Shown here: positions 2,071 to 61,042 of the stretch, piece after piece
Layout: each line of letters opens with the position of its first letter
Position numbering within the stretch: position 1 is the stretch's first letter
Sequence record: NC_054928.1
DNA length: 64,000 bases
Origin: Escherichia phage vB_vPM_PD112
Reading direction: 5' to 3' (one strand)
The notes under the pieces: model-generated
What the model was told of the DNA's origin: nothing
Seen by the model: the letters and a program-made list of their open reading frames with translations, nothing else
Database searches by the model: none
Made by a program: the position numbers and the translations under genes

Positions 2071-2100
2071 TAAAAAAAGGGAGAGCTTCGGCTCTCCCTA
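2071..2100 (-). terminator. intrinsic terminator (hairpin plus U-run)
   Basis: Minus strand GGGAGAGCCGAAGCUCUCCC followed by UUUUUUUAUUUU, just before the motA promoter. Confidence 0.7.
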
Positions 2101-3878: not shown

Positions 3879-3959
3879 TCACTGGCGTCCGAAGACGCCT
3901 TTAGTTTTAAGATTGTTACGATAGAACTGCATTACGTGTTCGTTATGGAAATTACTCAT
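3879..3959 (-). CDS. stp: Stp peptide (suppressor of three-prime phosphatase)
   Basis: 26-aa [29 protein letters not shown], recalled as T4 Stp; SD GAGGA; hairpin immediately downstream. Confidence 0.75.
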
Positions 3960-5370: not shown

Positions 5371-5634
5371 TCATAGTTCAATCTCAACGATTTCCAGGTG
5401 TTTTTGTTTTATTGCCTTTTTAACACAATCATGGACTAAATATGACCATGAATCATTATATTCTCCATTAACTAATCGTTGGAGATCTTCACGTGATGAT
5501 AAGTAAGGTTGATCTGATTCCCATTTTGATAAAAATACTGCAGTAAAAATATCTCCTTCACCTGTAGTTGAAGTCGTAAATGCAATAAATTCACCGGTAA
5601 TTTTATGTTTAGCGTAATAAAATTTAAATTTCAT
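5371..5634 (-). CDS. hypothetical protein, 87 aa
   Basis: Track ORF trimmed to the ATG that lies downstream of promoter 5662-5690 and has SD GGAGGA. Confidence 0.5.
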   Translation of the reverse strand: MKFKFYYAKHKITGEFIAFTTSTTGEGDIFTAVFLSKWESDQPYLSSREDLQRLVNGEYNDSWSYLVHDCVKKAIKQKHLEIVEIEL

Positions 5635-5661
5635 TTTTACTCCTCCGTAGCTGATAGTTGT

Positions 5662-6266: not shown

Positions 6267-6528
6267 TTAGACTTTCCTTTTTACCACTGAGATAAGCGTT
6301 ATATACTTTAAGAGTGCCGTAATAAATTCGGTCATTTTCATCTAAAGACTCGCGGTCAAGTTCATCGAGCTCCTTTTTATCCATGACTATAACATCATTA
6401 CAGTAAAGAAACCCAAGTTTTTCGTGACCAAACTCAAATTTATTACAGTACACAATATTAGCGTGATGATTTCCGTGCAGTTTAATCTCTTTTATGTCGG
6501 AATCACCGATATTCATACAATAAATCAT
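6199..6528 (-). CDS. hypothetical protein, 109 aa
   Basis: Track ORF, ATG start, SD AAGGAAAA; 3-prime end overlaps denB start by 68 nt. Confidence 0.45.
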   Translation of the reverse strand: MIYCMNIGDSDIKEIKLHGNHHANIVYCNKFEFGHEKLGFLYCNDVIVMDKKELDELDRESLDENDRIYYGTLKVYNAYLSGKKESLNAENESWVTETVSDSDIYPIEQ

Positions 6529-6540
6529 AATTTTTCCTTA

Positions 6541-6560
6541 AAACAAAAGGGCCGAAGCCC
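6541..6560 (-). other. intercistronic hairpin with UUCG loop
   Basis: Minus strand GGGCUUCGGCCC followed by UUUUGUUUU, between ORF 6567-6761 and ORF 6199-6528. Confidence 0.6.
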
Positions 6561-6566
6561 TTTATT

Positions 6567-6761: not shown

Positions 6762-6793
6762 AATTTTCCTTAATGTAATAAGGGCCGAAGCCT

Positions 6794-7732
6794 TTATTTG
6801 AATTGTTCAGTAACGTCTTCAACTACTTCGTATTGGCAGGTACGCATTTTAGCATCGTTGTAATCAATCGGAATTGATACTACATCACGCGGATGTACTT
6901 TAACTTTTACAACTCGGCTGGTTGAACTGCCAAAGTGACGAATATAAGATTTAGAACACACATGCAGACCATGAGAACAAGTTTGTGTATCATCGTCATT
7001 CACACGAGTACGTGGCATTTTAACTACTTTACCCGGACTGTTATCAAAGGTGTTTGAGTGACAGTCAAAGTAATTGCTACGAACTACTTTCCAAGCATAG
7101 AAGTAACCATCTTCTGTAATTTCAATATCGTTTGCTACCAAGAAATCAAAGAGTCGAGATACCGCTTTTTGGCTTGGGTTTTCCAACAGATTTTCCAGGA
7201 ACGGAAAATAAAATTCAAAGTTTTCGCCTTTTTCCATCGAATCGAGAATACGATCAACTAAACCAGACCGCAATTCAATGTTTTGATAGAACAAGCTTCC
7301 ACCTTCAATTCGAACATCGCCGGAAATATATTTTTCAACAGCGCGACGAACATTAATTTTTTGTGCCGCTTCTTCCAACTTATCCGCTACAAGCAGATTA
7401 AGAATTTCCTGGAAGTTTGAATGAGTATTAGGAGTTGCGTTATAAGTTACACCGTCAACAGTAATTGAAATGAATTTTTTAGATGCATTCCAAATAATGT
7501 CAGATTTAGCAACTGGAGCAATAGCTACATCGCTCTTAACTTCAACTGTAATGTCACCGCTAATGGTAACTTTAGAGCGTTCAGCTTCTTCAGCATTTTT
7601 CAAAACACGACGGATTGTGTCAACCGATACACCTTGCCAATCAGCCAATTCCTGTTGGGTATAATTACCGCTTGAATACAGTTTGACAATTTCAGCTTGT
7701 TCGTTTTTGGTCAGGCATTTAATATTGTACAT
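6794..7732 (-). CDS. rIIB: rIIB protein
   Basis: 312 aa, the T4 rIIB length; immediately downstream of rIIA. Confidence 0.95.
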   Translation of the reverse strand: MYNIKCLTKNEQAEIVKLYSSGNYTQQELADWQGVSVDTIRRVLKNAEEAERSKVTISGDITVEVKSDVAIAPVAKSDIIWNASKKFISITVDGVTYNATPNTHSNFQEILNLLVADKLEEAAQKINVRRAVEKYISGDVRIEGGSLFYQNIELRSGLVDRILDSMEKGENFEFYFPFLENLLENPSQKAVSRLFDFLVANDIEITEDGYFYAWKVVRSNYFDCHSNTFDNSPGKVVKMPRTRVNDDDTQTCSHGLHVCSKSYIRHFGSSTSRVVKVKVHPRDVVSIPIDYNDAKMRTCQYEVVEDVTEQFK

Positions 7733-10190: not shown

Positions 10191-10722
10191 TACTGGCTCA
10201 TCCATTCTTTACGAAGGTCAGCATTATCTCCCATGAGCATTTCAAAAAGCTCTTTCCAATTCTCAGGAAGTTTAACAACATCATATACTGGGTTTTGAAT
10301 CATCTCACGATATTCAGATTTTTCCAAAGAGCCAAGTCCCTTAATATAACGGATGCTATGTTTAGGTAGAGCATCTTTGGCACTCTCATATTCAGCGACT
10401 GTATAAAACCATTCTTGTTTTTTGCCGACCTGAGCGATGATTACAGGAGTTTTGACAAAGCGAATTCTTCCTTGTTCAAACAGTTCTGGCCAATTACTAA
10501 AAAATCCGAGCAGAGAAGGATAAATAGAACCTAATCCAATAATCTCTTAATTATGAGGTATTTCTATAGATAGCCCGAAGGCTATCCATCGTGATCTGCG
10601 TCTGTCATAATAGCGACATTCGCATAGTTCATTGAAGAGGATTTAATAGAACGACGAACATTGTTCTGCAATTTATATTTTTTCATATCAACGCTAGAAG
10701 AATCAATTTTTACAAATTTCAT
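10190..10722 (-). CDS. 60: DNA topoisomerase II subunit gp60, made by 50-nt translational bypass
   Basis: Codons 1-46 at 10722-10585 (MKFVKIDSS...TDADHDG), then UAG; decoding resumes at UUA 10534 (LGSIYPSLLGFFSNWPELFEQGRIRF...MSQ) to stop 10190-10192; 160 aa total as in T4. Confidence 0.95.
10535..10584 (-). other. gene 60 coding gap (ribosome bypass element)
   Basis: Take-off GGA 10585-10587, stop UAG 10582-10584, take-off hairpin UAGCCUUCGGGCUA, landing GGA 10535-10537. Confidence 0.9.
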
Positions 10723-13101: not shown

Positions 13102-13120
13102 AAAGGCCCGAAGGCCTTTT
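13102..13120 (-). other. hairpin with UUCG loop over the stop codon of ORF 13119-13379
   Basis: Minus strand AAAGGCCUUCGGGCCUUU; sits directly upstream of the gene 39 middle promoter. Confidence 0.6.
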
Positions 13121-20326: not shown

Positions 20327-20958
20327 TCAACTACCTCAATATCATAAACTTTAAATGTTCCAAATGAATCGTGTAATTTTTCTTTTGAAATAGAAGTTAT
20401 TTTATACTTTCCAATTGGAATCATCCATTCTTGTTCACGCACAATCATCATTAAGTTATCAGTACGTTCTGAATCTAATCCATCAGTATCTTCATATGTA
20501 TACTTAAACTCAGTATTAGGAGAAGAAAGTATAATATCGCTGATATGGTCAGAATAATTAAAAGCTTTATCAGTTTTTAAGCGAAATATTATTTCAGTGA
20601 AATACTCAACATAAGAAAAACCACATGCTGTGTGCAAACTAGTAGTAAATGAATCTACTCTGTTCGTTGAAAACACTTCTCCAACTTGTAAATCTTTAAT
20701 GAGCTCTTTTGTCGATTTTGATATACCACGATATAGCTGATAAGGTGATTCAGTTAAATGCTTTTTAATGATTTTATTCAACTGCCGATGAAGAGCTTCA
20801 TTCTTTTTGGCTTCCATACATTGCCAAAGAACTGATTGTTCAAAGTCAGTAAATTTTTCACAGACCTTTTTATACATATCATATTGAAAATCAACGCTTT
20901 CAGCTTTTATAGATAACTGTTCAACATCTGCAAGATTAATAATCATGATAGCCTCCAT
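20323..20958 (-). CDS. modB: ModB ADP-ribosyltransferase
   Basis: 211 aa paralogue of ModA with LYRGIS, STN, EQEWMIP motifs. Confidence 0.85.
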   Translation of the reverse strand: MEAIMIINLADVEQLSIKAESVDFQYDMYKKVCEKFTDFEQSVLWQCMEAKKNEALHRQLNKIIKKHLTESPYQLYRGISKSTKELIKDLQVGEVFSTNRVDSFTTSLHTACGFSYVEYFTEIIFRLKTDKAFNYSDHISDIILSSPNTEFKYTYEDTDGLDSERTDNLMMIVREQEWMIPIGKYKITSISKEKLHDSFGTFKVYDIEVVE

Positions 20959-21013
20959 ATACTTCAGAAGCTATCATATCATCGTTAGGAAGGAAAGTAA
21001 ACAACTTTTTGAA

Positions 21014-23077: not shown

Positions 23078-23106
23078 ATTATACCATACTCATTTTGGAA
23101 AGTAAA
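23078..23106 (-). promoter_or_regulatory. T4-early-type promoter
   Basis: Minus strand TTTACT (plus 23101-23106), 17 nt, TATAAT (plus 23078-23083). Confidence 0.7.
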
Positions 23107-23115
23107 CCGGTAAAA

Positions 23116-23141
23116 TGAAAAAAGGACTCCCGAAGGAGTCC
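23116..23141 (-). terminator. intrinsic terminator downstream of soc
   Basis: Minus strand GGACUCCUUCGGGAGUCC followed by UUUUUUCAUUUU. Confidence 0.7.
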
Positions 23142-23149
23142 TTAAATTA

Positions 23150-23386
23150 TTAACCACCTATTGTTGTAGGCGTAAACATTGCAGCATTCTTAGTTTTCCA
23201 AGTTGCTGCATCGGAAACTACATCAGAATAAGCTGCTTTTTCTGACGGAAAGATTTGATAATGAGAATCTGCAATACGGTGTTCATTTGAATATACATCA
23301 AATGCTACAGAAACTTCCATACCTTTAACTTCTTTGCCTTCACCCGCTGGATGAGTAAAGGTCTTGATGTTAACGAAACCACCCAT
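23150..23386 (-). CDS. soc: Soc small outer capsid protein
   Basis: 78 aa; motifs FVNIKTF, VSVAF, HYQIFPSEKAAYS resemble T4 Soc as I recall it. Confidence 0.75.
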   Translation of the reverse strand: MGGFVNIKTFTHPAGEGKEVKGMEVSVAFDVYSNEHRIADSHYQIFPSEKAAYSDVVSDAATWKTKNAAMFTPTTIGG

Positions 23387-23425
23387 AATAAACTCCTTTA
23401 TTGTTTAATTACAAGTGTATTTATA

Positions 23426-23599
23426 TCAATCTTCAATGAAAACTTGTGCCAGGAATTCATGCTCATCTTGAATTTGTTTATATAAAGCCATTACAGCATT
23501 TATGTTAGAGCTATCTACTTTAAGTTGATAAGCATACCACTCATGTAAATTAATTAAAGCTTTTTGACGTCTAATAAATTCTTCTTTGGATATTTTCAT
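23426..23599 (-). CDS. small protein, 57 aa
   Basis: Hand-translated MKISKEEFIRRQKALINLHEWYAYQLKV...; ATGA overlap with upstream ORF. Confidence 0.4.
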   Translation of the reverse strand: MKISKEEFIRRQKALINLHEWYAYQLKVDSSNINAVMALYKQIQDEHEFLAQVFIED

Positions 23600-23796
23600 T
23601 TTGAATGCTCTATAATTAATTTTAAGGCTTCTTCACTTACAAAAATTTCGTCAGGGCTTTCTTCTGCAACCCAATCAACCGCACGAAGCTGATTAGATAA
23701 GAGCTCGTATGTGAGCTCCTTGTCATAATTTTTAAATAGCTGGTCAATACGTTTCTTGTGGGCTTTCTTAAGTTGACGTTTATTTAAACGAGCCAT
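23596..23796 (-). CDS. hypothetical protein, 66 aa
   Basis: Track ORF, ATG start. Confidence 0.5.
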   Translation of the reverse strand: MARLNKRQLKKAHKKRIDQLFKNYDKELTYELLSNQLRAVDWVAEESPDEIFVSEEALKLIIEHSK

Positions 23797-24311
23797 TAAT
23801 AACCTCGGTCTTGACGTTCAAAATTATGTTTATTTTTCAAATAATAAAGTTTAAAGATTTCTTCCGCATTCATTCCAAGGCCAGCAAACATATTTAATAC
23901 GAAATGAAATATATCCACAAGCTCAAATTTAATTTCGAGCTGATCTTCTGGGGACATTTCATCAATGCGTTTTTCTTGCGCTTCAATATAACGTGCTTTC
24001 CATTTTTTCCAAACTGCCGATGCATCTTTTTCACCACGTGACATTTCACCAAGAGAAGTCAGAAGTTCGCGGAATTCATCGTCAATGCAGTCTTTTTGTT
24101 CACGCATCCAAGAAACAACATCACCGGCAGTTTCTAATTTATCTGGATGATAGCAGTATTCGCGGTCATTTGCTAAACGAACCTGTAAAGATTTCTGCAT
24201 ATCAAGCATAACTTGCAGAGGGTCTTTTTCATCACCGAGAATATCCCAGTATTCATTTTGAGCTTTATCAGCGCCTTCGATCAGATGACTACATTCGTTG
24301 AAATGTGGCAT
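23796..24311 (-). CDS. 56: dCTPase-dUTPase (MazG-like pyrophosphatase)
   Basis: 171 aa from first ATG (track adds a TTG extension); T4 gp56 length; position next to soc and dam. Confidence 0.8.
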   Translation of the reverse strand: MPHFNECSHLIEGADKAQNEYWDILGDEKDPLQVMLDMQKSLQVRLANDREYCYHPDKLETAGDVVSWMREQKDCIDDEFRELLTSLGEMSRGEKDASAVWKKWKARYIEAQEKRIDEMSPEDQLEIKFELVDIFHFVLNMFAGLGMNAEEIFKLYYLKNKHNFERQDRGY

Positions 24312-27631: not shown

Positions 27632-27662
27632 TTTCTTTTCTCCGCGATTAGCTGATAGAATT

Positions 27663-27691
27663 ACTATAACACAACTCTATCAGCTTGTAAA
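27663..27691 (-). promoter_or_regulatory. T4-early-type promoter
   Basis: Minus strand TTTACA (plus 27686-27691), 17 nt, TATAGT (plus 27663-27668). Confidence 0.65.
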
Positions 27692-28121: not shown

Positions 28122-28150
28122 AACAATCTCCTCATTTAACCAACAAGACT

Positions 28151-28179
28151 ACTATACCATAGTCTTGTCAGCTTGTAAA
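28151..28179 (-). promoter_or_regulatory. T4-early-type promoter upstream of dmd
   Basis: Minus strand TTTACA (plus 28174-28179), 17 nt, TATAGT (plus 28151-28156); palindrome CAAGACT..AGTCTTG spans the -10. Confidence 0.65.
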
Positions 28180-29616: not shown

Positions 29617-29961
29617 TTAAAAGAATTTAAATTTTTTCTTTGACCTTTTATTAAATGCATCTTGTAGTTGCATTGTAATACATTTTTCTACATGAGGAGC
29701 TAACTCAGCTTTTCTTTCTTGGTCAAGAACAGCAAAGTCCATTACGACTTTTCCATCAACCCAATCTAATTTTGTCACATACACAATGTGTGTAGAACCA
29801 TCTTCTAGTTTAATGACAATCTCCTGGATAACATTTTCCATGGCAGATTTAATTATCTTAAGAGATTCATTAAAAAGACGTTCTTTTCTTTCTTCTTCCC
29901 CCTCCGAAGAGGGGGATTCATCGATAATTTCTAGATCTAAATCTAAATCATCTTTATTCAT
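29617..29961 (-). CDS. 40: acidic protein, about 114 aa, probably gp40
   Basis: Position between uvsX and 41 as on the T4 map; track start is GTG, first ATG used. Confidence 0.45.
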   Translation of the reverse strand: MNKDDLDLDLEIIDESPSSEGEEERKERLFNESLKIIKSAMENVIQEIVIKLEDGSTHIVYVTKLDWVDGKVVMDFAVLDQERKAELAPHVEKCITMQLQDAFNKRSKKKFKFF

Positions 29962-31129
29962 TAAATTCTTCCATATCACTTAACTGTTCGAGGTCAGTTT
30001 CTAAATCAGCAGCTGATTTACTTTTACTTTCTGGAGATTTAAATTTTTCAACCTTTGAGTTAATCAATTCATCAACTTCAGCTTCAACAATTTCATTACT
30101 ATCAATAGCACCTAACTGATAAGCACGTTTAATAGCATCTCGGAATGGTTGATGCTTAAATAAAGGACCCCAGAATGTAGTGCAGTTGGTATCTTTTGCA
30201 CGCCAAGATTTTTCTTCGCGAATCATCTCACCGGTTTCTTCATCAAGAAATTCACGAGCATACCAGCCATTTTTAGGTTTTACCACGAATCCTAATTCTA
30301 GAGCCATATCTAACAATCCAGAATAAGGATCGATACCACCATCAAATTTAACATCAATAAAGAATTTACTTTTTTCTTTAACGGTACGAGATTTTTCTAC
30401 ATTTAGAACAAATTGATACCCCTGAAGATCAGAACCATCTTTAATCTGACGCTTACCGATAATGAATACAGTATCAGCCGAATACATCGGTCCAGTCCCG
30501 CCTCCCATAACGGTTTTACTAAACATTTCTTGTGTTTCGTATGTATGGTTAATAGCAATACATGGAATATTTTTAGTACTAAAATAGGGAGTTACGATAC
30601 GAAATAAGCTTTTCATTGTTTTAGCTCTAGTCATATCACTAACAACTTTTTCATTTAAAGCATCTTCAGTTTCTTTCTTAGAAGCTAAGTTACCAAGCGA
30701 ATCAATAAAAACGACTACCTTTTCACCACGTTCAATTGCATCCAATTGATTAACCATATCAATACGTAATTGCTCAAGTGATTGAACCGGAGTATGAATT
30801 ACTCGTTCTGGATCAACCCCCATGGATCGCAAATAAGCTGGAGTGATACCAAATTCGCTGTCATAAAACAAACATACTGCGTCAGGATATTGCCGCATGT
30901 AAGATGACACCATTGTTAATCCAAAGTTTGATTTAAATGATTTTGATGGACCTGCCAAAATTAACAGACCAGATTGCATACCACCAGTAATTTCACCAGA
31001 AAGCGCAATATTCATCATAGGAATTTTTGTTCGAACTACATCTTTTTCATTAAAGAATTTAGATGTAGTCAGTTCAGCGGTCAATTTAGAAGTAGAAGCT
31101 TTAATCAAACGAGATTTTAAATCAGACAT
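29954..31129 (-). CDS. uvsX: UvsX recombinase (RecA-like)
   Basis: 391 aa, the T4 UvsX length; Walker A GPSKSFKS. Confidence 0.95.
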   Translation of the reverse strand: MSDLKSRLIKASTSKLTAELTTSKFFNEKDVVRTKIPMMNIALSGEITGGMQSGLLILAGPSKSFKSNFGLTMVSSYMRQYPDAVCLFYDSEFGITPAYLRSMGVDPERVIHTPVQSLEQLRIDMVNQLDAIERGEKVVVFIDSLGNLASKKETEDALNEKVVSDMTRAKTMKSLFRIVTPYFSTKNIPCIAINHTYETQEMFSKTVMGGGTGPMYSADTVFIIGKRQIKDGSDLQGYQFVLNVEKSRTVKEKSKFFIDVKFDGGIDPYSGLLDMALELGFVVKPKNGWYAREFLDEETGEMIREEKSWRAKDTNCTTFWGPLFKHQPFRDAIKRAYQLGAIDSNEIVEAEVDELINSKVEKFKSPESKSKSAADLETDLEQLSDMEEFNE

Positions 31130-31807: not shown

Positions 31808-32650
31808 TTAATCAACTGCTATTGGATGAATAGCATTAAACTTATGAAACGCTTCTGATTTTTCTTTGCGCGAAACACACATGCGAAGAACCTTTAATGG
31901 CTCGTCTTCTTCACCCAACGATTTTCGTTTTTCAATATTAGAAGTTTTCCAACGAGCTTGCTCTGGAAATTCTCTATTGATTTGCTCGAGAGCTCTATTA
32001 TGTTTTGAATTACTACGAATTGAACTACATCCGCCAGGAGCTTGTGCTTTTCCGGATACAACCAGATATTTGAACAAGGCCAAATGCGGATAACCTTGAT
32101 TAATTAAATTGAGAAATGCATACATATCTTCGCATAAATCAATTTTTCCATACCCAATTTGTTCTGTTGTAAGTTTTCCAAGGTCATACCATGTATTCGT
32201 GAATCCATATGAATTTTCACGATAATTACCCCAAGATGAAGTAATTTTAAAAATAGGTAGACGAGCATGGCCATGATAATACCCGCAATCCATGGCATCT
32301 TCAACGTATTGAATCAATTCATAGAACTGTTCACGAGTTAATTGATTAATTTTATCTACGCAGCGACGATCATCTTTCTTTCGCATTGAACTCATACGAA
32401 TAGTAGTATCATCATCGATCATCCAAATTCGTTGACCTGCATACATATCAGTAATTGCTTTACGAGTTCCAGCAATTCCATTAACATCATCAGGAATAGT
32501 TACAATTTTAGCTCTAGACCCGTAAGCGTCATAATAAGCTTTTTCTTCATGTTCACGTACTACAATATGAGGTTCATAATCAGTCGGAAACATATCAAGG
32601 GCAGAAACTGCCCCTACACGTTGATAGCTTGGAATTACGAATTGAATCAT
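31808..32650 (-). CDS. GT-A fold (family 2-like) glycosyltransferase in the T4 beta-gt slot
   Basis: 280 aa; FVIPSYQR N-terminus and DxD-like WMIDDDTT; too short for T4 beta-gt (351 aa). Confidence 0.7.
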   Translation of the reverse strand: MIQFVIPSYQRVGAVSALDMFPTDYEPHIVVREHEEKAYYDAYGSRAKIVTIPDDVNGIAGTRKAITDMYAGQRIWMIDDDTTIRMSSMRKKDDRRCVDKINQLTREQFYELIQYVEDAMDCGYYHGHARLPIFKITSSWGNYRENSYGFTNTWYDLGKLTTEQIGYGKIDLCEDMYAFLNLINQGYPHLALFKYLVVSGKAQAPGGCSSIRSNSKHNRALEQINREFPEQARWKTSNIEKRKSLGEEDEPLKVLRMCVSRKEKSEAFHKFNAIHPIAVD

Positions 32651-34330: not shown

Positions 34331-34351
34331 AAAAAGGGACCTGGAGGTCCC
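34331..34351 (-). terminator. intrinsic terminator after gene 43
   Basis: Minus strand GGGACCUCCAGGUCCC followed by UUUUU, 14 nt past the polymerase stop. Confidence 0.7.
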
Positions 34352-34364
34352 TAGATTTATTCTA

Positions 34365-37061
34365 TCAGCCAAACAGGAAGTCTAACGAAGCTTTTTCTTC
34401 ATAGTCCATGCCAGCCGATTCACACATACCCGCAAGCGGTTTAACAAACGATTTTTGGAACAAAGTTGAGTGGTCAATCCAAGATAGCACATCAGAACGA
34501 ATTTCTTTTGGAAGTTCTGTACCCGATGGCCAAGCAATGCACTTGTCACCAAATGGATTTCCCTCACGTAATGGAAGAACCATTACCTTATTTCCATCCA
34601 AAATTGGAGCTACACCTAGACCACTAACAGCTCGACGATAAGTTAGCACCCCACGAATATGGAACGGGCATTTAAATCCTGGCCAACCTTTATCATCATA
34701 TTTCGCTATATCATTCGCAGTTTTTACTTCAGCAATAACTTTATAGTCAAGTTGACGATATTCTTTCTCGAAGTTCTTGTAATATTCTTGGACAGACTCT
34801 TCACCTTCCTGAAGAATACGACGAATACTTTCTTCGAGAGCTTCTTGCACTGCTTTTGGTGTTGAACTCTGCTGAGTTTCCATACCCATGATTTTTAGAT
34901 GTGGTTCAGCAAATCGCTTATCTTCCATATCATAAACGTTCAGAGCATAACGTTTTTTCGCTTTCCAAAATCCACCGACACCCTTTGAACCAAGCGGAGG
35001 ACAAGAAATAGCTTCACGGTCCATATGCATCAGATGCTCGCGATTATTCATATAATCACATAACTCACGATATGCAACATCAATCATAGGTTCCATCTTT
35101 TTCTTACCGAACTGATTCATGAATTCAACTAAATCATTTTGTTCTTTAAAGCGGTCAAGACCTACTTTTTCAATAACTTTATCTACACAAACATATACCG
35201 AATCAGTATCACCCGCGGCGATGAAATCTTCATCATTAGTTCCGCATACTTTATTCAGATATTCGTTAATTTTACGAGCAATCCACTGAATACCAACTTG
35301 ACCAAAAATTGTGATAGCAGTAGCATTTCGCAAATCATAGTAACGGAAATGAATGTTACCAAGAGCACCATAAAGACTGTTAATAAGAATTTTACGGTTC
35401 AGCTGATTTGTGTTAGCAAGTGTAGCTGCTTTTTCACATTCTTCAATCAGACTATTGAGAACGGATTCGGTGTAATTCGATAGTTCATTTAAGAAATCAT
35501 CATTGAACTTAACATATCGTTCAACTTCTGGTTTAGTTGAACAAGACCCTGCGCCTTTCATAATAATCTTTTTAATAGCTTCGGCATTCATTTCTTCAGC
35601 GAACATTTTCTTTTTCCAATCTTTACGCTGGAAAAATACTTTAGCGATTTCCTTTGGAATGATACCTTCTTGATGCTTATCATACATCCATCCATTCGGA
35701 GAACAAGAATATTCATCACTCGGTTTAGGAGCTGTTCCTGCAATATATTCATGAATTGGATGAACTTTAAACTGCCCACGAATAGTCTCAGGACTAATGT
35801 TAACCTGACGAATAATGCTAGGATACAGAGACGTCAAGTCAAAACTCATAATATATCGACGAGCAATTGGTTTAGGTTCAAACACAAATGCACCCGGAAA
35901 ACTTTGTTTAACGTGCGAACCCTGTTGAGGAATAACCTTATGTTCACCTTTCAGTGAGTTAAAAATAATAGCGTCCCAAGTTTTAATAGGACTCATTACG
36001 CCAGAAAAAGGCATTTTAGCGTAATAAGACATACTTAAAACTAGATCGATAAACCCACGAATTTTATCAATTGCTTGAACTGATTCTACGTCAATGATGT
36101 TATAACTAATGTATCGTTGATGATTAGTCTCACGAAGTTTATTAATAGGACCATCATACGGTAATTTACCTTTTTTGGTTTCATGCTGAGCAACTGATTC
36201 CAAAGAGAATGACGGCAAATTAGTAAATGCGAATTTCTTATACAAATCTAAATAATCAAGAATAGATACGCCATCAATAGAATAAATTTCTTTGCTACCG
36301 TACACATTTTGAATTAGTTTAGATTTTACCCGACCGATTGGAGAGAAGCGTTTCATACTACGTTCGCCAAGAACCATTTTAACACGATTCATGATATACG
36401 GAACGTCAAATCCCTCAATATTCCAACCAGTAAAAATAGCAGGTCGTTTCTGTTCCCAGAGATTAATATATTCCATGAGCATATCACGCTCATTATCAAA
36501 TGGCATATAAATTACTCGGTCAAGAATTTCTTGAGGAACTTCATCACCACCTTCACAGTCAAGCTTAGCAGCTAACTTTGCATCCCATTTTGATACTGAA
36601 CCGTACATTGAATTCAAAAGGTCGAAAACATAAAAACGGTCATCAATTGAATCGTAATGAGTGATAGCATCAATTTCATATTCTGCTTTCATTGGGTCAG
36701 GAAATTTATCACCAGTAACCTCAATGTCACAGTTAGCTACACGAACAAATTTTCGGTCATAAACAATTTCTGAACCATATGTATCACTGATATAAGCGAG
36801 TTTAAAATCGTTCATACCGAGAGCTTCGAGACCGATGTCTTCCATTCGTTTCATCCAATCTCGTGCATCTTTCATTGATGGAAATTTTTGAGGAGCGCAA
36901 TTTTTACCATAAATGTCTTTGTATTTTGATTCTTCCTTACAGTGTCTAAACATAGTCGGAATATATTCTACTTCACGAGTACGTTCCTTTCCGTTTTCAT
37001 CAATATAACGTTCAACAATGTTATTTCCGACTGTTTCAATAGAGATATAAAATTCTTTCAT
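34365..37061 (-). CDS. 43: DNA polymerase (family B) with 3-prime exonuclease
   Basis: 898 aa, the T4 gp43 length; N-terminus MKEFYISIETVGNNIVERYIDENGKERTREVEY; exo and pol motifs. Confidence 0.98.
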   Translation of the reverse strand: MKEFYISIETVGNNIVERYIDENGKERTREVEYIPTMFRHCKEESKYKDIYGKNCAPQKFPSMKDARDWMKRMEDIGLEALGMNDFKLAYISDTYGSEIVYDRKFVRVANCDIEVTGDKFPDPMKAEYEIDAITHYDSIDDRFYVFDLLNSMYGSVSKWDAKLAAKLDCEGGDEVPQEILDRVIYMPFDNERDMLMEYINLWEQKRPAIFTGWNIEGFDVPYIMNRVKMVLGERSMKRFSPIGRVKSKLIQNVYGSKEIYSIDGVSILDYLDLYKKFAFTNLPSFSLESVAQHETKKGKLPYDGPINKLRETNHQRYISYNIIDVESVQAIDKIRGFIDLVLSMSYYAKMPFSGVMSPIKTWDAIIFNSLKGEHKVIPQQGSHVKQSFPGAFVFEPKPIARRYIMSFDLTSLYPSIIRQVNISPETIRGQFKVHPIHEYIAGTAPKPSDEYSCSPNGWMYDKHQEGIIPKEIAKVFFQRKDWKKKMFAEEMNAEAIKKIIMKGAGSCSTKPEVERYVKFNDDFLNELSNYTESVLNSLIEECEKAATLANTNQLNRKILINSLYGALGNIHFRYYDLRNATAITIFGQVGIQWIARKINEYLNKVCGTNDEDFIAAGDTDSVYVCVDKVIEKVGLDRFKEQNDLVEFMNQFGKKKMEPMIDVAYRELCDYMNNREHLMHMDREAISCPPLGSKGVGGFWKAKKRYALNVYDMEDKRFAEPHLKIMGMETQQSSTPKAVQEALEESIRRILQEGEESVQEYYKNFEKEYRQLDYKVIAEVKTANDIAKYDDKGWPGFKCPFHIRGVLTYRRAVSGLGVAPILDGNKVMVLPLREGNPFGDKCIAWPSGTELPKEIRSDVLSWIDHSTLFQKSFVKPLAGMCESAGMDYEEKASLDFLFG

Positions 37062-37105: not shown

Positions 37106-37137
37106 ATTATACTCCAATTAAGGGGCCGAAGCCCCTT
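37106..37137 (-). promoter_or_regulatory. -10 element and UUCG hairpin between regA and 43
   Basis: Minus strand GGGGCUUCGGCCCC (plus 37120-37137) then TATAAT (plus 37106-37111). Confidence 0.5.
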
Positions 37138-38074: not shown

Positions 38075-39034
38075 TCACTTCCACTGCATTTCGCATGCCA
38101 ATTGAATGAAAAGATATGCTAAATGTAATTCCGTATTAGCCGCAATTCCATGATACTGGTTATTTTCACCAACAATTTCATACATACGAATAATACTTTG
38201 CGGAGTTACGCGTGTATAAATTTCTTCGGCAAGTTTACCAACGAACCACGAATAATCAGCCGCATATTTTGGTGCTAAAGCTCTGAGTTGTTTAACATCT
38301 TTATTTTTGAGAGACTCAAGAACATCATCAATAGCACCACGATCGTTAGTAACCAGTGATAAAATACCAGCATCCAAAACACCTTTAGATGAATAACTAT
38401 CGAGCTCACCAATAGTTTTACGAAAATCAGGAAAATTCTTTTTAACCAAAGCTGCTACAACTTTCATATCAGCTATAGCAATTCCTTCACGCTTGCAGAT
38501 TTCAGTCAATCGACGAATCATCTGCTTCATCATTTCAATTTTATCTTCATCGGTCGGTTGACCGAATGTGATAACTCGACAGCGTGACTGAAGCGGTTTA
38601 ATAATACCATCAATATTGTTAGCAGTAATAATAATACTACAGTTTGAACTATAAGCTTCCATAAAGGAACGAAGATGTCGCTGAGATTCTGCTAACCCTG
38701 AACGGTCAAATTCATCAATAACGATTACTTTTTGACGACCATCAAATGAAGCGGCGCTGGCAAAATTAGTCAAAGGACCACGAACGAAATCAATTTTACA
38801 ATCTGATCCATTCACAAACATCATATCAGCATTTACATCATGACACAATGCTTTTGCTACAGTTGTTTTACCTGTTCCTGGAGAAGGAGAATGAAGAATA
38901 ATATGTGGAATCTTACCTTTACTTGTAATAGATTTAAAGGTTTCTTTATCAAAGGCGGGAAGAATACATTCATCGATAGTAGATGGACGATATTTCTGTT
39001 CAAGAATGTGTTCTTTTTCATTTACGGTAATCAT
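38075..39034 (-). CDS. 44: clamp loader large subunit (AAA+ ATPase)
   Basis: 319 aa from ATG MITVNEK (track adds a TTG extension); Walker [10 protein letters not shown]. Confidence 0.95.
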
Positions 39035-39069
39035 AATTTCCTCATTCAAGTTTTAGTGTAAATTATAAA

Positions 39070-39081
39070 GGGCCGAAGCCC
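39070..39081 (-). other. intercistronic UUCG hairpin between 45 and 44
   Basis: Minus strand GGGCUUCGGCCC; 4 nt past the gene 45 stop. Confidence 0.6.
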
Positions 39082-39085
39082 TTTA

Positions 39086-39772
39086 TTAAAAATCGTGGGT
39101 AGAATCAGCTTCAAGAGCTACCACATAATTCGCGTGTTCACCTTCAAATTTAGCAGCACCTTGTTTACCTTTTGCCCAGAGCAGAAGTTTATAATTTCCT
39201 GGTTGCATTTTCATATTTGCCATATTGATAATGAAATTAAATGTATTTTCACCATCATAATCGCCAAGAGTCAAAGAATATTTAACACGAGTCAAAGCAG
39301 AATCTTCTACTTTATTAAAACCGTTAATTACGATTTTACCTTCTTTTACCGTGATAGCAATTGTATCAATTTGCAGACCACGAGATACACGCAACAGTTG
39401 TTGAAGGTCTTCAGCTTTAATTTCAGTAACAACAGATGCTACCGGGAATGGAATTGGTTTATTAGGAGCAACTACTGTACTCGGATCGGCTGCTGGCCAA
39501 AAAATTGTTGAGCGAGCATCAGCAATTTTAATATTACCATCTTCTGACTGGGAAATTTCTGCATCATCATTAACTAGAGACAGAATACCGAGAAAACCGT
39601 TCAAATCGTAAATTGCTACATCAAAATCAATAACGTCAGAAATATTTGCTTCAGCATAAGTTGTACCATTAACTGCACGAGTCATAATAAATTGACCAGA
39701 TTTAAGCATAATACCGGAGTTAATAGTAGCGAAATTTTTCAAAATATTCAGTGTATCTTTAGACAGTTTCAT
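39086..39772 (-). CDS. 45: sliding clamp
   Basis: 228 aa, the T4 gp45 length; N-terminus MKLSKDTLNILKNFATINSGIML. Confidence 0.95.
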   Translation of the reverse strand: MKLSKDTLNILKNFATINSGIMLKSGQFIMTRAVNGTTYAEANISDVIDFDVAIYDLNGFLGILSLVNDDAEISQSEDGNIKIADARSTIFWPAADPSTVVAPNKPIPFPVASVVTEIKAEDLQQLLRVSRGLQIDTIAITVKEGKIVINGFNKVEDSALTRVKYSLTLGDYDGENTFNFIINMANMKMQPGNYKLLLWAKGKQGAAKFEGEHANYVVALEADSTHDF

Positions 39773-40470: not shown

Positions 40471-42153
40471 TTAAACCATTACAGTAAATCGACCAACTTT
40501 CTTCATTTGAAGATGCTGACCATATTCTTGCGGGTCATGGTCTTTATGCGAAATTATAAAGACATTAGTGTTTTTCATTGAATTTATAATATTAGCTACA
40601 CCTTTAATACCTTCGGCATCAAATGACCCATCAAACACTTCATCAAGAATTAATGTACTAATACTAACACCAGATACGATAGAAGCAATATCACGCCAAG
40701 TAAATAAAAGAGCAATATCAATTCGTGCCTTTTCGCCTTCACTAAATGAAGCATAACTAAAATCTTCACGACCACGGGATTTAATTGTCTCATTAAATTC
40801 TTCATCTAATGTAAACACATAATCCGCTTCCATTATTTTAAGATAATGGTTAATCTGCTTATTAAATAATGGAATGTACTTTTTAATAATAGCACCTTTA
40901 ATACCAGAATCTTTGAGCATATCAGTCAAAATTCCTCGGTGGTATTTTTCCATTACTAAATTAGTTTTTGTCTTAACAATTTTATCAAGTTCTTCTTGAA
41001 GCAGTGCTATTTCATCAGCATGGTCAATAAACTCAGAAGATGCTTTTTCTATAGCCGCTTTAACCTTTTTGGCTTTATCTACCGTCGTGATTAGAGATTG
41101 CTTTTTATTGCGAATATCATTTGCCAACGTCTGCTGGGTTTTAATATTATCTCGGTATTCATCAACAAGAACTTTTAAATTATCACGATGCGTTGAAAGC
41201 TGTTCAAATGAATGCGTACATTCAGAAACTTTATCTTTAATTTTAGAAACAACTTTATCACCGGAACTTAATTGTGACAAACAGGTTGGACATAATCCAC
41301 CTTCGTGATACATATTAATGACTTTATTATACGAATCAATTTTTGATTTAATTAAAAATGCTTCTTGACCAATTTTATTAAATGCATCAGTCGGGTCTTC
41401 ATCTAAAACAATATTAACTAATCTTTCGTTAGCTTCTTCTATTTCCGATTTTAGTGTTCTAGCTTCTTTTGCCAAATCATCATACATATTTTGCAGACGA
41501 GTAAGGTTTTCACCAGACAATTTTTTCTGGCGTTCAACATTATCGTTATATATTTTAATTTGTTGGATAATACTATCTTTTTTAACATCAAGCACTTGGT
41601 TTTGTGAATTTAATTCACGTATTAGTGCTTTATTAAGCTTATCCATTTCAGCTAATGTTCCTACTTCGAGCAGGTCTTCGACGAGTTTTCTTCTTGCAGG
41701 AGTGGATAGGCCCATAAAAGGGGTATATCCAGCCGTGCCGAGTACGACGATCTGTTTGAAACTGGCGTATGACATTCCGATAAGCTGTTCAAATTCTGCT
41801 TGGAAATCTTTACTGCTGGCAGATTCATTAAGACGTGTACCGTTAACGGTGATTTCGAAAACATTTGGTTTTTGTCCTCTTTTGATATAGTACTTTTTCT
41901 CATCATATTCCATCCACAGTTCAACTAAAAGTTCTTTCTTATTTGTGCTGTTTATTAATTGGCCTTTCTTTACATCACGAAATGGCTTGCCAAAAAGCCC
42001 AAATGTGATGGCTTCTAACATAGTAGACTTACCACCGCCATTTCGTCCAGTAATAAGAGTTTTTTGAACCTTATCTAGTTGAATGTCAATCCCATTTTGA
42101 CCAACTGACATTATATTTTTATATTTTACTCTATTAAGTTTAAAATTCTTCAC
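40471..42153 (-). CDS. 46: recombination nuclease ATPase subunit (Rad50/SbcC-like)
   Basis: 560 aa, the T4 gp46 length; Walker A GRNGGGKST and C-terminal signature; GTG start with SD AAAGGAA. Confidence 0.95.
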   Translation of the reverse strand: MKNFKLNRVKYKNIMSVGQNGIDIQLDKVQKTLITGRNGGGKSTMLEAITFGLFGKPFRDVKKGQLINSTNKKELLVELWMEYDEKKYYIKRGQKPNVFEITVNGTRLNESASSKDFQAEFEQLIGMSYASFKQIVVLGTAGYTPFMGLSTPARRKLVEDLLEVGTLAEMDKLNKALIRELNSQNQVLDVKKDSIIQQIKIYNDNVERQKKLSGENLTRLQNMYDDLAKEARTLKSEIEEANERLVNIVLDEDPTDAFNKIGQEAFLIKSKIDSYNKVINMYHEGGLCPTCLSQLSSGDKVVSKIKDKVSECTHSFEQLSTHRDNLKVLVDEYRDNIKTQQTLANDIRNKKQSLITTVDKAKKVKAAIEKASSEFIDHADEIALLQEELDKIVKTKTNLVMEKYHRGILTDMLKDSGIKGAIIKKYIPLFNKQINHYLKIMEADYVFTLDEEFNETIKSRGREDFSYASFSEGEKARIDIALLFTWRDIASIVSGVSISTLILDEVFDGSFDAEGIKGVANIINSMKNTNVFIISHKDHDPQEYGQHLQMKKVGRFTVMV

Positions 42154-43775: not shown

Positions 43776-43779
43776 TAAA

Positions 43780-43791
43780 GGGCCGAAGCCC
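43780..43791 (-). other. UUCG hairpin abutting the alpha-gt stop codon
   Basis: Minus strand GGGCUUCGGCCC directly after the stop at 43793-43795. Confidence 0.6.
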
Positions 43792-43792
43792 T

Positions 43793-44995
43793 TTATTTTG
43801 TAATAATGTCAAACTGCTCTTTAAAGCAGAAGCTTGAATCTTGGTGCTGATACAAAAATTCATAAGCTTTTTCGCGTTCACGGTCATAAAGAGCTCGGTC
43901 AGATGACAGTTCTTTAATACGTTCAAATGTTGATTCCATGTCATTTTCATCAAACCAAACGATACCGCTATCGTGCGAAATTAATGGAGTATTATCAACA
44001 CGGAATTTTAAATTTTCGCCAGTAGATTTCCAAAATACTGGAATTGTTCCACATGCACCAAGCTCGAGATGAGTATATTCTAAAGAACGCTGTAGATATT
44101 TTTTATCTAATTTACTCAGCTGATAACCAAATCCGGATTTACTCATGCGTTCAAGCATTTCGCTATTTACATAACGGTCGAGAATTTGCGTCGGCAAATT
44201 AGGAGCAATTTTAATTTGGTCTACTTGATGAAGACGATAATACTCGTATGGAATTCCTTTTTCTTTAATAGGAATGAAAGCTGGAGAACGTTCCAGACCT
44301 TCCATAATAGTACTTAGTCCTGCAGGTTTAAGATGTTTTTCGTGAAAATCAAACATCTGATAAAAGCCTTTCCATGTAGTAGTACGACCAATCCAACGGT
44401 TGATATTCATGTTAATTTCAGAAACATCTTTCCAGTAGGTTGATCGAACCTTCGCAATATCCATAGGAGGCTGAAAGTTATATACGGTCGGTGCTTCTTC
44501 AATATCATCAAACAGAGAAACAGTTTCCGGATACCATTCTTTCATCAAAACTTTATTAAAGTCACCATTATCAGAATGGCTAAAAATAACATCAGCTCGA
44601 CGAACAGTTTCTTCTAATCCCAAATTTCGGCGTAAAGAAAGAGAAGAATGGTCATGCTGATAAACTACAACACGAACCGAAGGTTTAATGTTATCAATAA
44701 TTTTTTTATAGTTATTAATAGTGTCTTCTTCTACTGAAGTAGCAGGAACTGAATTGATAATTAGAATATCACAATCATTTACCAACTTAAGTGTTTTATC
44801 GTATTCTTTTGCCAATAAAACCGGAATTGAAAATGACTTATAATCATGCGCGCAATTACGAGTAAATGATTTATCTTTAGCATAAACCAAAGTTACTTCA
44901 TGACCATTTTTAATAAACCAATCACGCTGCTCAAGAGAAAATTTAGTTACACCGCAACCTTCAAGACCTCGAGCCATAAAAATACATGCTTTCAT
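43793..44995 (-). CDS. agt: alpha-glucosyltransferase
   Basis: 400 aa, the T4 alpha-gt length; N-terminus ...CIFMARGLEGCGVTKF. Confidence 0.9.
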   Translation of the reverse strand: MKACIFMARGLEGCGVTKFSLEQRDWFIKNGHEVTLVYAKDKSFTRNCAHDYKSFSIPVLLAKEYDKTLKLVNDCDILIINSVPATSVEEDTINNYKKIIDNIKPSVRVVVYQHDHSSLSLRRNLGLEETVRRADVIFSHSDNGDFNKVLMKEWYPETVSLFDDIEEAPTVYNFQPPMDIAKVRSTYWKDVSEINMNINRWIGRTTTWKGFYQMFDFHEKHLKPAGLSTIMEGLERSPAFIPIKEKGIPYEYYRLHQVDQIKIAPNLPTQILDRYVNSEMLERMSKSGFGYQLSKLDKKYLQRSLEYTHLELGACGTIPVFWKSTGENLKFRVDNTPLISHDSGIVWFDENDMESTFERIKELSSDRALYDREREKAYEFLYQHQDSSFCFKEQFDIITK

Positions 44996-45019
44996 TTAAT
45001 ATCCTCATTGTTTTGGTTT

Positions 45020-45043
45020 ATTTTACCAAAAATTTATAAAGCA
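45020..45043 (-). promoter_or_regulatory. MotA-box middle promoter-like element upstream of alpha-gt
   Basis: Minus strand TGCTTTA (plus 45037-45043), 11 nt, TAAAAT (plus 45020-45025). Confidence 0.45.
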
Positions 45044-45061
45044 ATATAGGAGCCGAAGCTC

Positions 45062-45235
45062 CTATCCACATAATACACCATACAGAGGCTCATTAGAGCT
45101 TCTAAATTTTATACGTTTATATGTTATAGTTCCTTCTGCTTTAGCTTTATCATGAGACTCTTTAAAGCGCCTCATCATTTCTACTTTAGAGGAACGAATT
45201 TTATTATAATCTATTTCAGAAGTCTGGGTGTTCAT
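45062..45235 (-). CDS. small basic protein, 57 aa
   Basis: Hand-translated MNTQTSEIDYNKIRSSKVEMMRRFKESHDKAKAEG...; stop lies in a UUCG hairpin; not in track. Confidence 0.3.
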   Translation of the reverse strand: MNTQTSEIDYNKIRSSKVEMMRRFKESHDKAKAEGTITYKRIKFRSSNEPLYGVLCG

Positions 45236-47410: not shown

Positions 47411-47430
47411 TCCAAAAAGGGCCGAAGCCC
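47411..47430 (-). terminator. UUCG hairpin with U-run (terminator-like)
   Basis: Minus strand GGGCUUCGGCCC followed by UUUUUGG, directly after the stop of ORF 47431-47631. Confidence 0.55.
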
Positions 47431-47631
47431 TTAGCTAAACTGTTTGGCGCCCTTCCAGCCTTCGTACATCATTGCGGCTGATATTAATATTGCCCCTGAA
47501 CAGCTTGAATATTTGTGATTCCAAAACCAGTTCAGAAAAACTTCGTCATCAATACCTTGGGCTATCATATTTTCAAAGAACTGACGACGAGCTTCGGCAA
47601 TTCGTTGCGATAATTTAGATTCAGGATTCAT
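47431..47631 (-). CDS. hypothetical protein, 66 aa
   Basis: Track ORF, ATG start. Confidence 0.5.
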   Translation of the reverse strand: MNPESKLSQRIAEARRQFFENMIAQGIDDEVFLNWFWNHKYSSCSGAILISAAMMYEGWKGAKQFS

Positions 47632-48370: not shown

Positions 48371-48393
48371 GAAAAAGAAAGGCCCAGAGGGCC
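48371..48393 (-). terminator. intrinsic terminator after the nrdH-like gene
   Basis: Minus strand GGCCCUCUGGGCC followed by UUUCUUUUUC. Confidence 0.6.
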
Positions 48394-48397
48394 CGTC

Positions 48398-60446: not shown

Positions 60447-60482
60447 TTTATTCTCCAATTTTACATTTGTTTTGATAGGGTA

Positions 60483-60511
60483 ATAGTATCACACTACTAC
60501 CCTGCTGTAAA
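60483..60511 (-). promoter_or_regulatory. T4-early-type promoter
   Basis: Minus strand TTTACA (plus 60506-60511), 17 nt, TACTAT (plus 60483-60488). Confidence 0.65.
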
Positions 60512-60515
60512 CAAT

Positions 60516-60779
60516 TTATTTTAATGTTCGCCAAATTTTTACTGCTTCGCGACGAGATACTTCTACAGCTCCAAGTTCTACAGCTTTTTGGCGTCGCCGA
60601 GCGTGTAAGTCATAATGTTTAATGCGTTTATCTTGAAACCAAGAACGTTTCATTCCTATTGCTTCTGCCATTTCGTGAAGCTCTTCAATATCTCCATCAG
60701 TGAACATATGACAATTTTTAGTTGGATGACCGCGAAGTTTCCATCCATGATTCATTAAAACATCTACGTAAACTGTCAT
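60516..60779 (-). CDS. hypothetical protein, 87 aa
   Basis: Track ORF, ATG start. Confidence 0.5.
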   Translation of the reverse strand: MTVYVDVLMNHGWKLRGHPTKNCHMFTDGDIEELHEMAEAIGMKRSWFQDKRIKHYDLHARRRQKAVELGAVEVSRREAVKIWRTLK

Positions 60780-60925
60780 TGATTCTTCTCCAAATAAGTT
60801 TCGATAATTTTCTGAGCGAGATAAACTGCATTATCTTCAGTTGCATCTTCTAAGAAACTTTCAAAACACTCTGAAATTTCTTCTGTGTCAATCAACTTTT
60901 TTACTTCAATTGGTGTAATTTTCAT
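60776..60925 (-). CDS. small acidic protein, 49 aa
   Basis: Hand-translated MKITPIEVKKLIDTEEISECFESFLEDATEDNAVYLAQK...; ATGA overlap; not in track. Confidence 0.35.
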   Translation of the reverse strand: MKITPIEVKKLIDTEEISECFESFLEDATEDNAVYLAQKIIETYLEKNQ

Positions 60926-60963
60926 TTTGTTTTTCCGTTTAAGTGTTTGTTTTGATAGTTGTA

Positions 60964-60991
60964 TAGTACCATAAAGCTTTATGCTTGTAAA
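60964..60991 (-). promoter_or_regulatory. T4-early-type promoter
   Basis: Minus strand TTTACA (plus 60986-60991), 16 nt, TACTAT (plus 60964-60969). Confidence 0.65.
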
Positions 60992-60999
60992 CCGTTTTG

Positions 61000-61040
61000 T
61001 GAAAAATTTTTGAAATAAAAAAGGGAGCCCGAAGGCTCCC
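61000..61040 (-). terminator. intrinsic terminator
   Basis: Minus strand GGGAGCCUUCGGGCUCCC followed by UUUUUUAUUUC, just past the stop of ORF 61043-62056. Confidence 0.7.
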
Positions 61041-61042
61041 TA

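Follow-up and report, generated by a model that had tools for sequence, protein, structure and literature searches.

The window, i.e. the whole stretch of DNA analysed, comprises 64,000 nucleotides of Escherichia phage vB_vPM_PD112 (sequence record NC_054928.1). Transfer of T4 gene names by tblastn assigns it to Tequatrovirus and reveals collinearity with T4 over arn.1, rIIB, rIIA, 60, 39, 43, regA, 62, 44, 45, 46, 47, a-gt, 55 and the nrdC cluster, up to mobD.1. All of these genes lie on the minus strand, which carries the early and middle genes, so the mRNAs correspond to the reverse complement of the strand as given. The G+C content is 33-37% and the GC skew is uniformly negative. A 3-kb piece around the focal site matches Escherichia phage vB_EcoM_CE1 at 100% identity and many other Tequatrovirus genomes at 98%, with similar results for the first 25 kb. 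Compared with T4, the window has indels at 60458-60952, 6280-6476, 5393-5644, 44983-45011 and 23156-23809; there are ~490 bp extra, including two small ORFs, between nrdC.11 and nrdC.10, and extra segments near denB, whereas mobB, segF, I-TevII and 49.2/49.3 are absent.

At the junction of genes 45 and 44, positions 39070-39081 read GGGCCGAAGCCC on the plus strand and GGGCUUCGGCCC on the minus (mRNA) strand, and lie within a C(UUCG)G hairpin (Table 1). The predicted minimum free energy (MFE) structure corresponds exactly to this hairpin (-13.1 kcal/mol, z = -4.15), with none of 200 shuffles being as good. The UAA stop codon of gene 45 contributes its final A as the first base of the hairpin, a U tail is absent, and the gene 44 AUG follows 30 nt past its end. 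A promoter for gene 44 does not appear in the 2010 list of mapped middle promoters (Hinton 2010); with no such listed promoter and with its start only 30 nt downstream, gene 44 is thus expected to depend on read-through of the hairpin. The T4 entry X00769 annotates a '-10 region (g44)', in which the 3′ end of the focal hairpin and the AAT that follows it form TATAAT (39062-39067).

Table 1. Coordinates of the hairpins in the window (mRNA-sense strand; stems and positions relative to neighbouring genes as read in the minus-strand RNA)
Feature	Coordinates	Strand	Stem	Position and tail
Focal C(UUCG)G hairpin, 45/44	39065..39086	-	9 bp, perfect, AUAAAGGGC-UUCG-GCCCUUUAU	
C(UUCG)G hairpin, regA/43	37120..37137	-	7 bp	2 nt past regA stop, 58 nt before gene 43 AUG
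C(UUCG)G hairpin, a-gt/47.1 side	43776..43795	-	8 bp	a-gt UAA forms first three stem bases
C(UUCG)G hairpin after a-gt.2	45046..45065	-	8 bp	a-gt.2 UAG within 5′ arm
C(UUCG)G hairpin, 55.3/55.2	47417..47432	-	6 bp	overlaps 55.3 stop, 38 nt before 55.2 AUG
C(UUCG)G hairpin after nrdC.11	61022..61041	-	8 bp	1 nt past stop; tail UUUUUAUUUC
C(UUCG)G hairpin after soc	23122..23143	-	9 bp	6 nt past stop; tail UUUUCAUUUU
C(UUCG)G hairpin after 39.1	13102..13119	-	7 bp	1-nt overlap with 39.1 stop
C(UUCG)G hairpin after denB.1	6546..6563	-	7 bp	3 nt past stop; tail UGUUUUAAGG
Weak interrupted C(UUCG)G hairpin	6777..6798	-	3-bp GC core plus 5 AU pairs	rIIB stop/denB.1 start
C(UUCG)G hairpin in 3′ end of stp	3884..3899	-	6 bp	
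C(UUCG)G hairpin inside gene 40	29897..29916	-	8 bp, UCCCCCUC-UUCG-GAGGGGGA	37 nt past uvsX stop
Gene 60 take-off stem-loop	10566..10589 (C(UUCG)G core 10569-10586)	-	GGA UAG CC-UUCG-GG CUA UC	
Non-member hairpin, motA.1/motA	2078..2099	-	9 bp, CGAA loop	U7 tail, terminator-like

The first-pass annotation had named nine sites at which such hairpins recur. When both strands of the whole window were scanned for perfect stems capped by a UUCG loop, all nine were recovered as perfect-stem C(UUCG)G hairpins on the minus strand, together with four more (those starting at 3884, 23122, 29897 and 6777). The description of the stems as GGGC...GCCC holds for the hairpins at 6546, 37120, 39065, 43776 and 47417, but elsewhere the stems differ. 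This brings the C(UUCG)G hairpins of the mRNA-sense strand to 13, of which 12 have perfect stems of 6-9 bp; the weak one at 6777 has a predicted energy of -6.5 kcal/mol (z = -1.7). The contexts of all 13 are 93-100% identical to T4.

Several measures indicate that these numbers are far above chance. With stems of at least 6 bp there are 12 UUCG hairpins on the minus strand versus one on the plus strand, whereas 200 dinucleotide-preserving shuffles, counted at a looser cut-off (stems of at least 5 bp), contained 0.28 on average and never more than three. The hexamer CTTCGG is present 33 times against 12.3 expected, a count reached in none of 100 shuffles, and, of the 56 tetraloop hairpins having at least 6 bp of stem, 12 have UUCG as the loop, every other loop occurring at most twice. 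Nine of the 12 perfect hairpins are intergenic and one lies in the gene 60 coding gap; given that intergenic DNA makes up 7.8% of the window (as computed with genes transferred from T4), the binomial probability of nine out of 12 is ~2e-8. The MFE fold (ViennaRNA) includes the hairpin at every site, and nearest-neighbour predictions of the bare hairpin energies range from -8.8 to -15.9 kcal/mol, with several single-site z-scores being modest (-1.6 to -2.1). Some hairpin of -8 kcal/mol or better is present in about one-third of the intergenic regions of the window. Curated Rfam families gave no matches at the gathering score across the whole window.

Among the strong intergenic hairpins of the window, roughly half have loops other than UUCG. 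Two such hairpins on the minus strand are terminator-like, i.e. AGGGACC-UCCA-GGUCCCU followed by UUUUCAUACA just past gene 43 (34335-34352), and GGGCC-CUCUG-GGCCU followed by UUCUUUUUCA upstream of nrdH (48380-48394). Three 14-bp intergenic hairpins of related sequence on the same strand (28138-28173, 27650-27685 and 20944-20978), two of which begin AGCUGA, hold a -10-like UGGUAUAG or UGUUAUAG in their loops; they recall those stem-loops overlapping a -10 box that occur among the PeSL cassettes, the composite terminator/promoter stem-loops of T4-like phages (Arbiol et al. 2010; Comeau et al. 2014). The hairpin between motA.1 and motA, which has an early-type promoter match 32 nt downstream, is an ordinary terminator/promoter pair. 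We considered and rejected the possibility that it is a bidirectional element; T4 reads CGAG at this loop, so the plus-strand UUCG is incidental, and the minus strand reads as a terminator with a U7 tail.

The hairpins are concentrated at stop codons, which extends the earlier remark that several of them sit directly on stops. At 10 junctions the hairpin is on, or within a few nucleotides of, the stop codon, starting from -4 to +6 nt relative to its end, and the distance to the downstream start codon is 12-70 nt in most cases. The simplest reading of this placement is genome compaction, the hairpin being pressed against the stop codon because a promoter and/or a ribosome-binding site takes up what is left of each spacer of 40-70 nt.

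Two hairpins lie within coding sequence. That in stp is separated by 2 nt from the stp UGA, with which the Shine-Dalgarno sequence of ac overlaps. For that in gene 40, the arms (CCCCCUC/GAGGGGG) are kept in relatives, the loop changing from UUCG to UCAG. In a genome of 35% G+C, the gene 40 hairpin consists of the codons CCC, UCU, GAG and GGG, and its 16 stem bases are constant in relatives with differing flanking codons. T4 has a counterpart of a coding-embedded hairpin at 123409-123424, inside alt.-1 and 29 nt past the alt stop.

The gene 60 hairpin, which the first-pass annotation had pooled with the others, has a different, translational, role and should be set apart from them. It marks the start of the 50-nt translational bypass gap, the region being 100% identical to T4 2777-2914, which spans the annotated bypass region (2803-2852), and it has the GGA take-off codon, the in-frame UAG and the UUCG-capped stem of the take-off element.

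Analysis of T4 itself, for which the whole reference was assembled from five pieces, reveals that all 20 C(UUCG)G hairpins with stems of at least 6 bp are sense with respect to the local genes. These include two on the plus strand, which are located just past the plus-strand late genes 23 and 37; antisense cases are confined to stems of 4-5 bp. The UUCG hairpins of other relatives are likewise sense-only, with fewer being used in some lineages.

To the extent that relatives have been compared, there is also evidence for conservation of structure at individual junctions. Across 16 loci around gp45 homologues (53-100% identity), taken from IMG/VR, a tetraloop hairpin is present at the 45|44 junction in every one of ten lineages (gp45 identity 53-100%). 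The loop is UUCG, UACG, GAAA or UUUG and the stems, although GC-rich, differ, including AUAGAGGGC/GCCCUCUAU, UGGGCC/GGCCCA, AGGGAC/GUCCCU, UGAGGCC/GGCCUCA and GGAGGA/UCCUCC. Double changes occur in seven of nine pairs and the covariation score exceeds those of all 500 shuffles and all slid registers, in alignments that were anchored on hairpins picked in each relative and are hence biased towards pairing. The pattern is the same at the regA|43 junction, with alignments anchored in the same way, where the loops are UUCG, CGUG, UCCG, UUAC and GAAA, with TATAAT following each. That hairpins are kept at the same junctions with changed stems, and sometimes changed loops (UACG, UCCG, GAAA), implies selection on RNA structure. 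The hairpins are real and under selection as structures, and a fair summary of the sequence comparisons is that each junction retains a stable hairpin although the sequence of the hairpin is replaced over time.

Comparison with the T4 reference reveals that the latter is one C short in the GCCC arm at three sites, i.e. 31899-31914, 40823-40838 and 167716-167745, the equivalents of the focal, 55.3/55.2 and denB.1 hairpins, respectively. In the case of 45|44, the short form is present in only four records, namely NC_000866, AF158101, and M10160 and X00769, the last two dating from the 1980s. The extra base is found in the remaining 249 Tequatrovirus records, among them those of resequenced T4 (OZ209023, OZ209057, HM137666), and the short form was absent on searching IMG/VR. 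The one-base T4 differences are probably legacy gel-compression errors. At 55.3 the base difference shifts the annotated reading frame, giving 79 aa in T4 versus 66 aa here. One use of the hairpins is to flag likely legacy errors in the T4 reference sequence.

The relationship of the hairpins to promoters was examined using the MotA-box/-10 pattern GCTTYA-N11-13-TANNNT, which is present in 22 copies versus 6.6 expected and which begins 1-4 nt past the hairpins at 13102, 43776 and 45046. The MotA box and -10 element of P39 (13077-13100) and those of P47 (43752-43775) directly follow the first two of these, whereas the third is followed by AUUGCUUUA and UAAAAU (45020-45042), the equivalent of T4 PmobB/Pa-gt.1. 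The T4 equivalents of the three hairpins are at 5381-5398, 36607-36626 and 38715-38734, and the published T4 start sites are 5349 for P39, 36576 for P47, 38682 for PmobB/Pa-gt.1 and 29933 for P43 (Hinton 2010 Table 1). Counting 7 nt from the -10 element reproduces exactly the published P39, P47 and PmobB/Pa-gt.1 starts, which in T4 lie 32, 31 and 33 nt past the respective hairpins. The earlier proposal that some of the hairpins are directly upstream of MotA-box promoters is thus substantiated for three of them, in agreement with experimentally mapped starts.

The arrangement at gene 43 is different, in that the mapped P43 start is 19 nt past the regA|43 hairpin (T4 29952-29969), so that the hairpin DNA includes the -30 region of P43. 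The sequence directly 3′ of this hairpin is UUGGAGUAUAAU. The GCTT of GGGGCTTCGG in the hairpin is at -31 to -28, i.e. at the canonical centre of a MotA box, although its spacing from the TATAAT hexamer is ~15 bp versus 12 +/- 1. It may be that the DNA of this hairpin doubles as the P43 MotA box. We rejected the GCTTCG loop as a general MotA box, since only P43 has a -10 element and a mapped start at a compatible distance. Early-type (sigma-70) promoter matches follow the hairpins at 61022 (TTTACA-17-TACTAT with TG, 60963-60991) and 23122 (TTTACT-17-TATAAT with TG, 23078-23106).

With respect to mRNA processing, Durand et al. 2006 (PMC1702504) examined RegB cleavage at the GGAG and GGAU motifs between T4 genes. 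GGAG motifs within stable stem-loops, 'often' UUCG-capped, were reported to be RegB-resistant (PMC1702504), an observation that would cover the GGAG motifs in the stems of the hairpins at 45046 and 61022. In the same study, RegB cut moderately at the GGAG upstream of 47.1 and efficiently at a GGAU upstream of 55.2 (PMC1702504). In the window, the 47.1 GGAG lies 10 nt past the hairpin at 43776, and the 55.2 spacer has two GGAU motifs, 3 and ~30 nt past that at 47417, the tail of which (UUUGGAUAAUAAAA) includes a RegB-consensus-like GGAU. The first of the two (GGAUAAUAAAA) is the better match to the published 11-nt consensus, although either of the two could be the one cut. A link to RegB, as raised in the first-pass annotation, is consequently visible as adjacency, with cuts from a few to ~30 nt downstream of two hairpins. 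This arrangement fits with a hairpin located near the new 3′ end of the upstream fragment after a RegB cut. Overall, the first-pass interpretation is reasonable and partly supported; its structural claims hold, and a role in termination together with stability or processing would agree with published statements on CUUCGG hairpins. A consideration against a punctuation role is that each terminating ribosome would have to melt the hairpins that overlap stop codons.

Taken together, the results make it probable that the hairpins constitute T4-type CUUCGG RNA punctuation at the 3′ ends of early and middle cistrons, with distinct roles in subsets. The copies with a U tract (61022, 23122, 6546 and probably 47417) would act as Rho-independent terminators, those at 61022 and 23122 being placed just ahead of the early-type promoters. 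The copies without a proper U tract (13102, 43776, 45046, 37120 and 39065) would stop RNA polymerase inefficiently and, in transcripts that read through, would probably delimit the upstream cistron. They would block 3′-to-5′ exonucleases after RegB or RNase E has cut near the next ribosome-binding site, and would nucleate local folding such that the neighbouring initiation region stays single-stranded. We infer these exonuclease-barrier and insulator roles from the architecture of the junctions and from the general logic of bacterial mRNA decay. The gene 60 copy functions in translational bypassing.

The possibility that all of the hairpins are simply Rho-independent terminators has some precedent, in that the literature names some T4 UUCG stem-loops as terminators, and four of the 13 (61022, 23122, 6546 and 45046) pass a stem plus U-tail rule. 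Those at 61022 and 23122 indeed look like intrinsic terminators and that at 6546 is terminator-like. In several of the remaining hairpins the GC core is followed closely by three U residues (GCCC-UUU...), and such imperfect U-rich tails (GCCC-UUUAGCUUUA) could give partial termination, so blurring the split into subsets. The terminator scan, however, rejects the hairpins at 39065, 37120, 43776, 47417 and 6783 (within the weak 6777-6798 hairpin), and the tails of those at 13102, 10569, 29897 and 3884, as read directly, are plainly not U-rich. With nine of 13 hence being without a U tract, the termination role suggested in the first-pass annotation would apply to a minority. Moreover, the set includes two coding-embedded hairpins as well as the bypass element of gene 60, and gene 44 lies beyond the focal hairpin in a manner requiring read-through. 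We therefore consider a purely terminator function for the entire set to be unlikely. Our search of the literature for a genome-wide T4 3′-end or Term-seq data set found none.

A primary function at the DNA level, with the hairpins being inverted repeats for recombination or shuffling and RNA folding being incidental, would account for the near-identical AAAGGGCTTCGGCCCTTT copies at four or five junctions, for the resemblance of the hairpin-plus-promoter modules to PeSLs and for the reported T4 deletions at GGGC/GCCC repeats (PMC2839356; PMC4122927). A DNA palindrome is, however, indifferent to TTCG versus CGAA, yet the hairpins are sense-only (12 to 1 in the window, 20 of 20 in T4), and their stems co-vary with retention of structure, which renders this explanation decidedly unlikely. 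Clustering of indels at UUCG hairpins gave a weak signal; four of 19 window-versus-T4 indel breakpoints are within 70 nt of a hairpin, a proximity not clearly above that expected for indels between genes, and most of the hairpins flank core genes. It is very improbable that the hairpins are sites for regulatory proteins (RegA or gp43 operators) or for a processing nuclease. The hairpins at 39065 and 37120 precede genes 44 and 43, the translation of which is repressed by RegA and gp43 (PMC3014915), but the gp43 operator is a different hairpin, having a UAAC-containing loop and lying closer to the start codon (PMC3014915), and is itself visible downstream of the hairpin at 37120. The stem sequences also vary among sites and lineages, the UUCG loop has been described as protein-non-binding (PMC4371310), and GGAG within stems of this type resists RegB (PMC1702504).

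A further proposal concerns the stop/hairpin/MotA-box/-10 modules before 39, 47 and a-gt (mobB in T4), which might be a middle-promoter counterpart of the PeSLs that combines several overlapping functions within ~50 nt. Following cleavage by RegB or RNase E, the upstream cistron would be capped and protected by the hairpin, and the MotA box, being T-rich, would also act as an imperfect tail for termination. In the case of P43, the GCTT core at -31 to -28 would come from the DNA of the hairpin. Occupancy by MotA/AsiA-RNA polymerase might then shift the balance of read-through versus re-initiation, and the repeated modules could also be usable as recombination joints. We regard this proposal as doubtful. 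In practice, the hairpins are useful in the annotation of T4-like genomes, where they indicate the true ends of cistrons and the positions of known promoters.

The feature is an ordinary, textbook T4 motif that has been known since 1988, which the first-pass annotation did not recognise. It consists of a short GC-rich stem under a UUCG tetraloop of the UNCG class, a loop of exceptional stability when closed by a C-G pair, for which melting data have been published. The UUCG tetraloop was reportedly discovered in this very motif by Tuerk, Gauss, Thermes and colleagues (PNAS 1988). A passage of PMC8948821, citing Tuerk 1988, describes CUUCGG hairpins as common, predominantly intergenic and especially abundant in T4; the same passage states that they stop reverse transcriptase and that their functions vary, including stabilisation of gene 32 mRNA. 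A 2022 preprint on gene 60 refers to CC-UUCG-GG as 'recurrent in T4 hairpins', acting as a terminator or RNA stabiliser, and a review of T4 post-transcriptional control mentions the tetraloop for gene 60 only (PMC3014915). The hairpins described here share with the T4 CUUCGG hairpins their loci and lineage, the UUCG loop, the C-G closing pair, the mostly intergenic location and the sense orientation; nothing essential differs, the GCCC arms being intact here and one base short at three sites in the T4 reference.

The resemblance to other systems is more partial. As with Rho-independent terminators, there is a GC-rich stem-loop past the stop codon and, in four copies, a U-rich tail, but most copies are without a U tract and are followed by the promoter or ribosome-binding site of a gene that needs read-through. 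The gene 60 take-off stem-loop has in common with the other hairpins only a stop codon in the 5′ arm and the UUCG cap, and acts on the ribosome in a coding gap rather than at a cistron end. E. coli REP sequences are intercistronic stem-loops that stabilise upstream mRNA against 3′ exonucleases. They are longer, imperfect palindromes of unrelated sequence, but the presence of a stable hairpin at the cistron 3′ end, upstream of endonuclease-sensitive sites, suggests that the copies without U tails may work by a comparable mechanism. As in the PeSL cassettes, the stem-loops adjoin a promoter and a Shine-Dalgarno sequence in short spacers, with some indels nearby, the promoters being early-type matches at 61022 and 23122, and the mapped P39, P47 and PmobB at 13102, 43776 and 45046. 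The PeSLs, however, have early sigma-70-like promoters and GGGG...CCCC stems and are found in the hyperplastic regions of RB49/phi1, whereas three of the modules here have MotA-dependent middle promoters and precede core replication genes.
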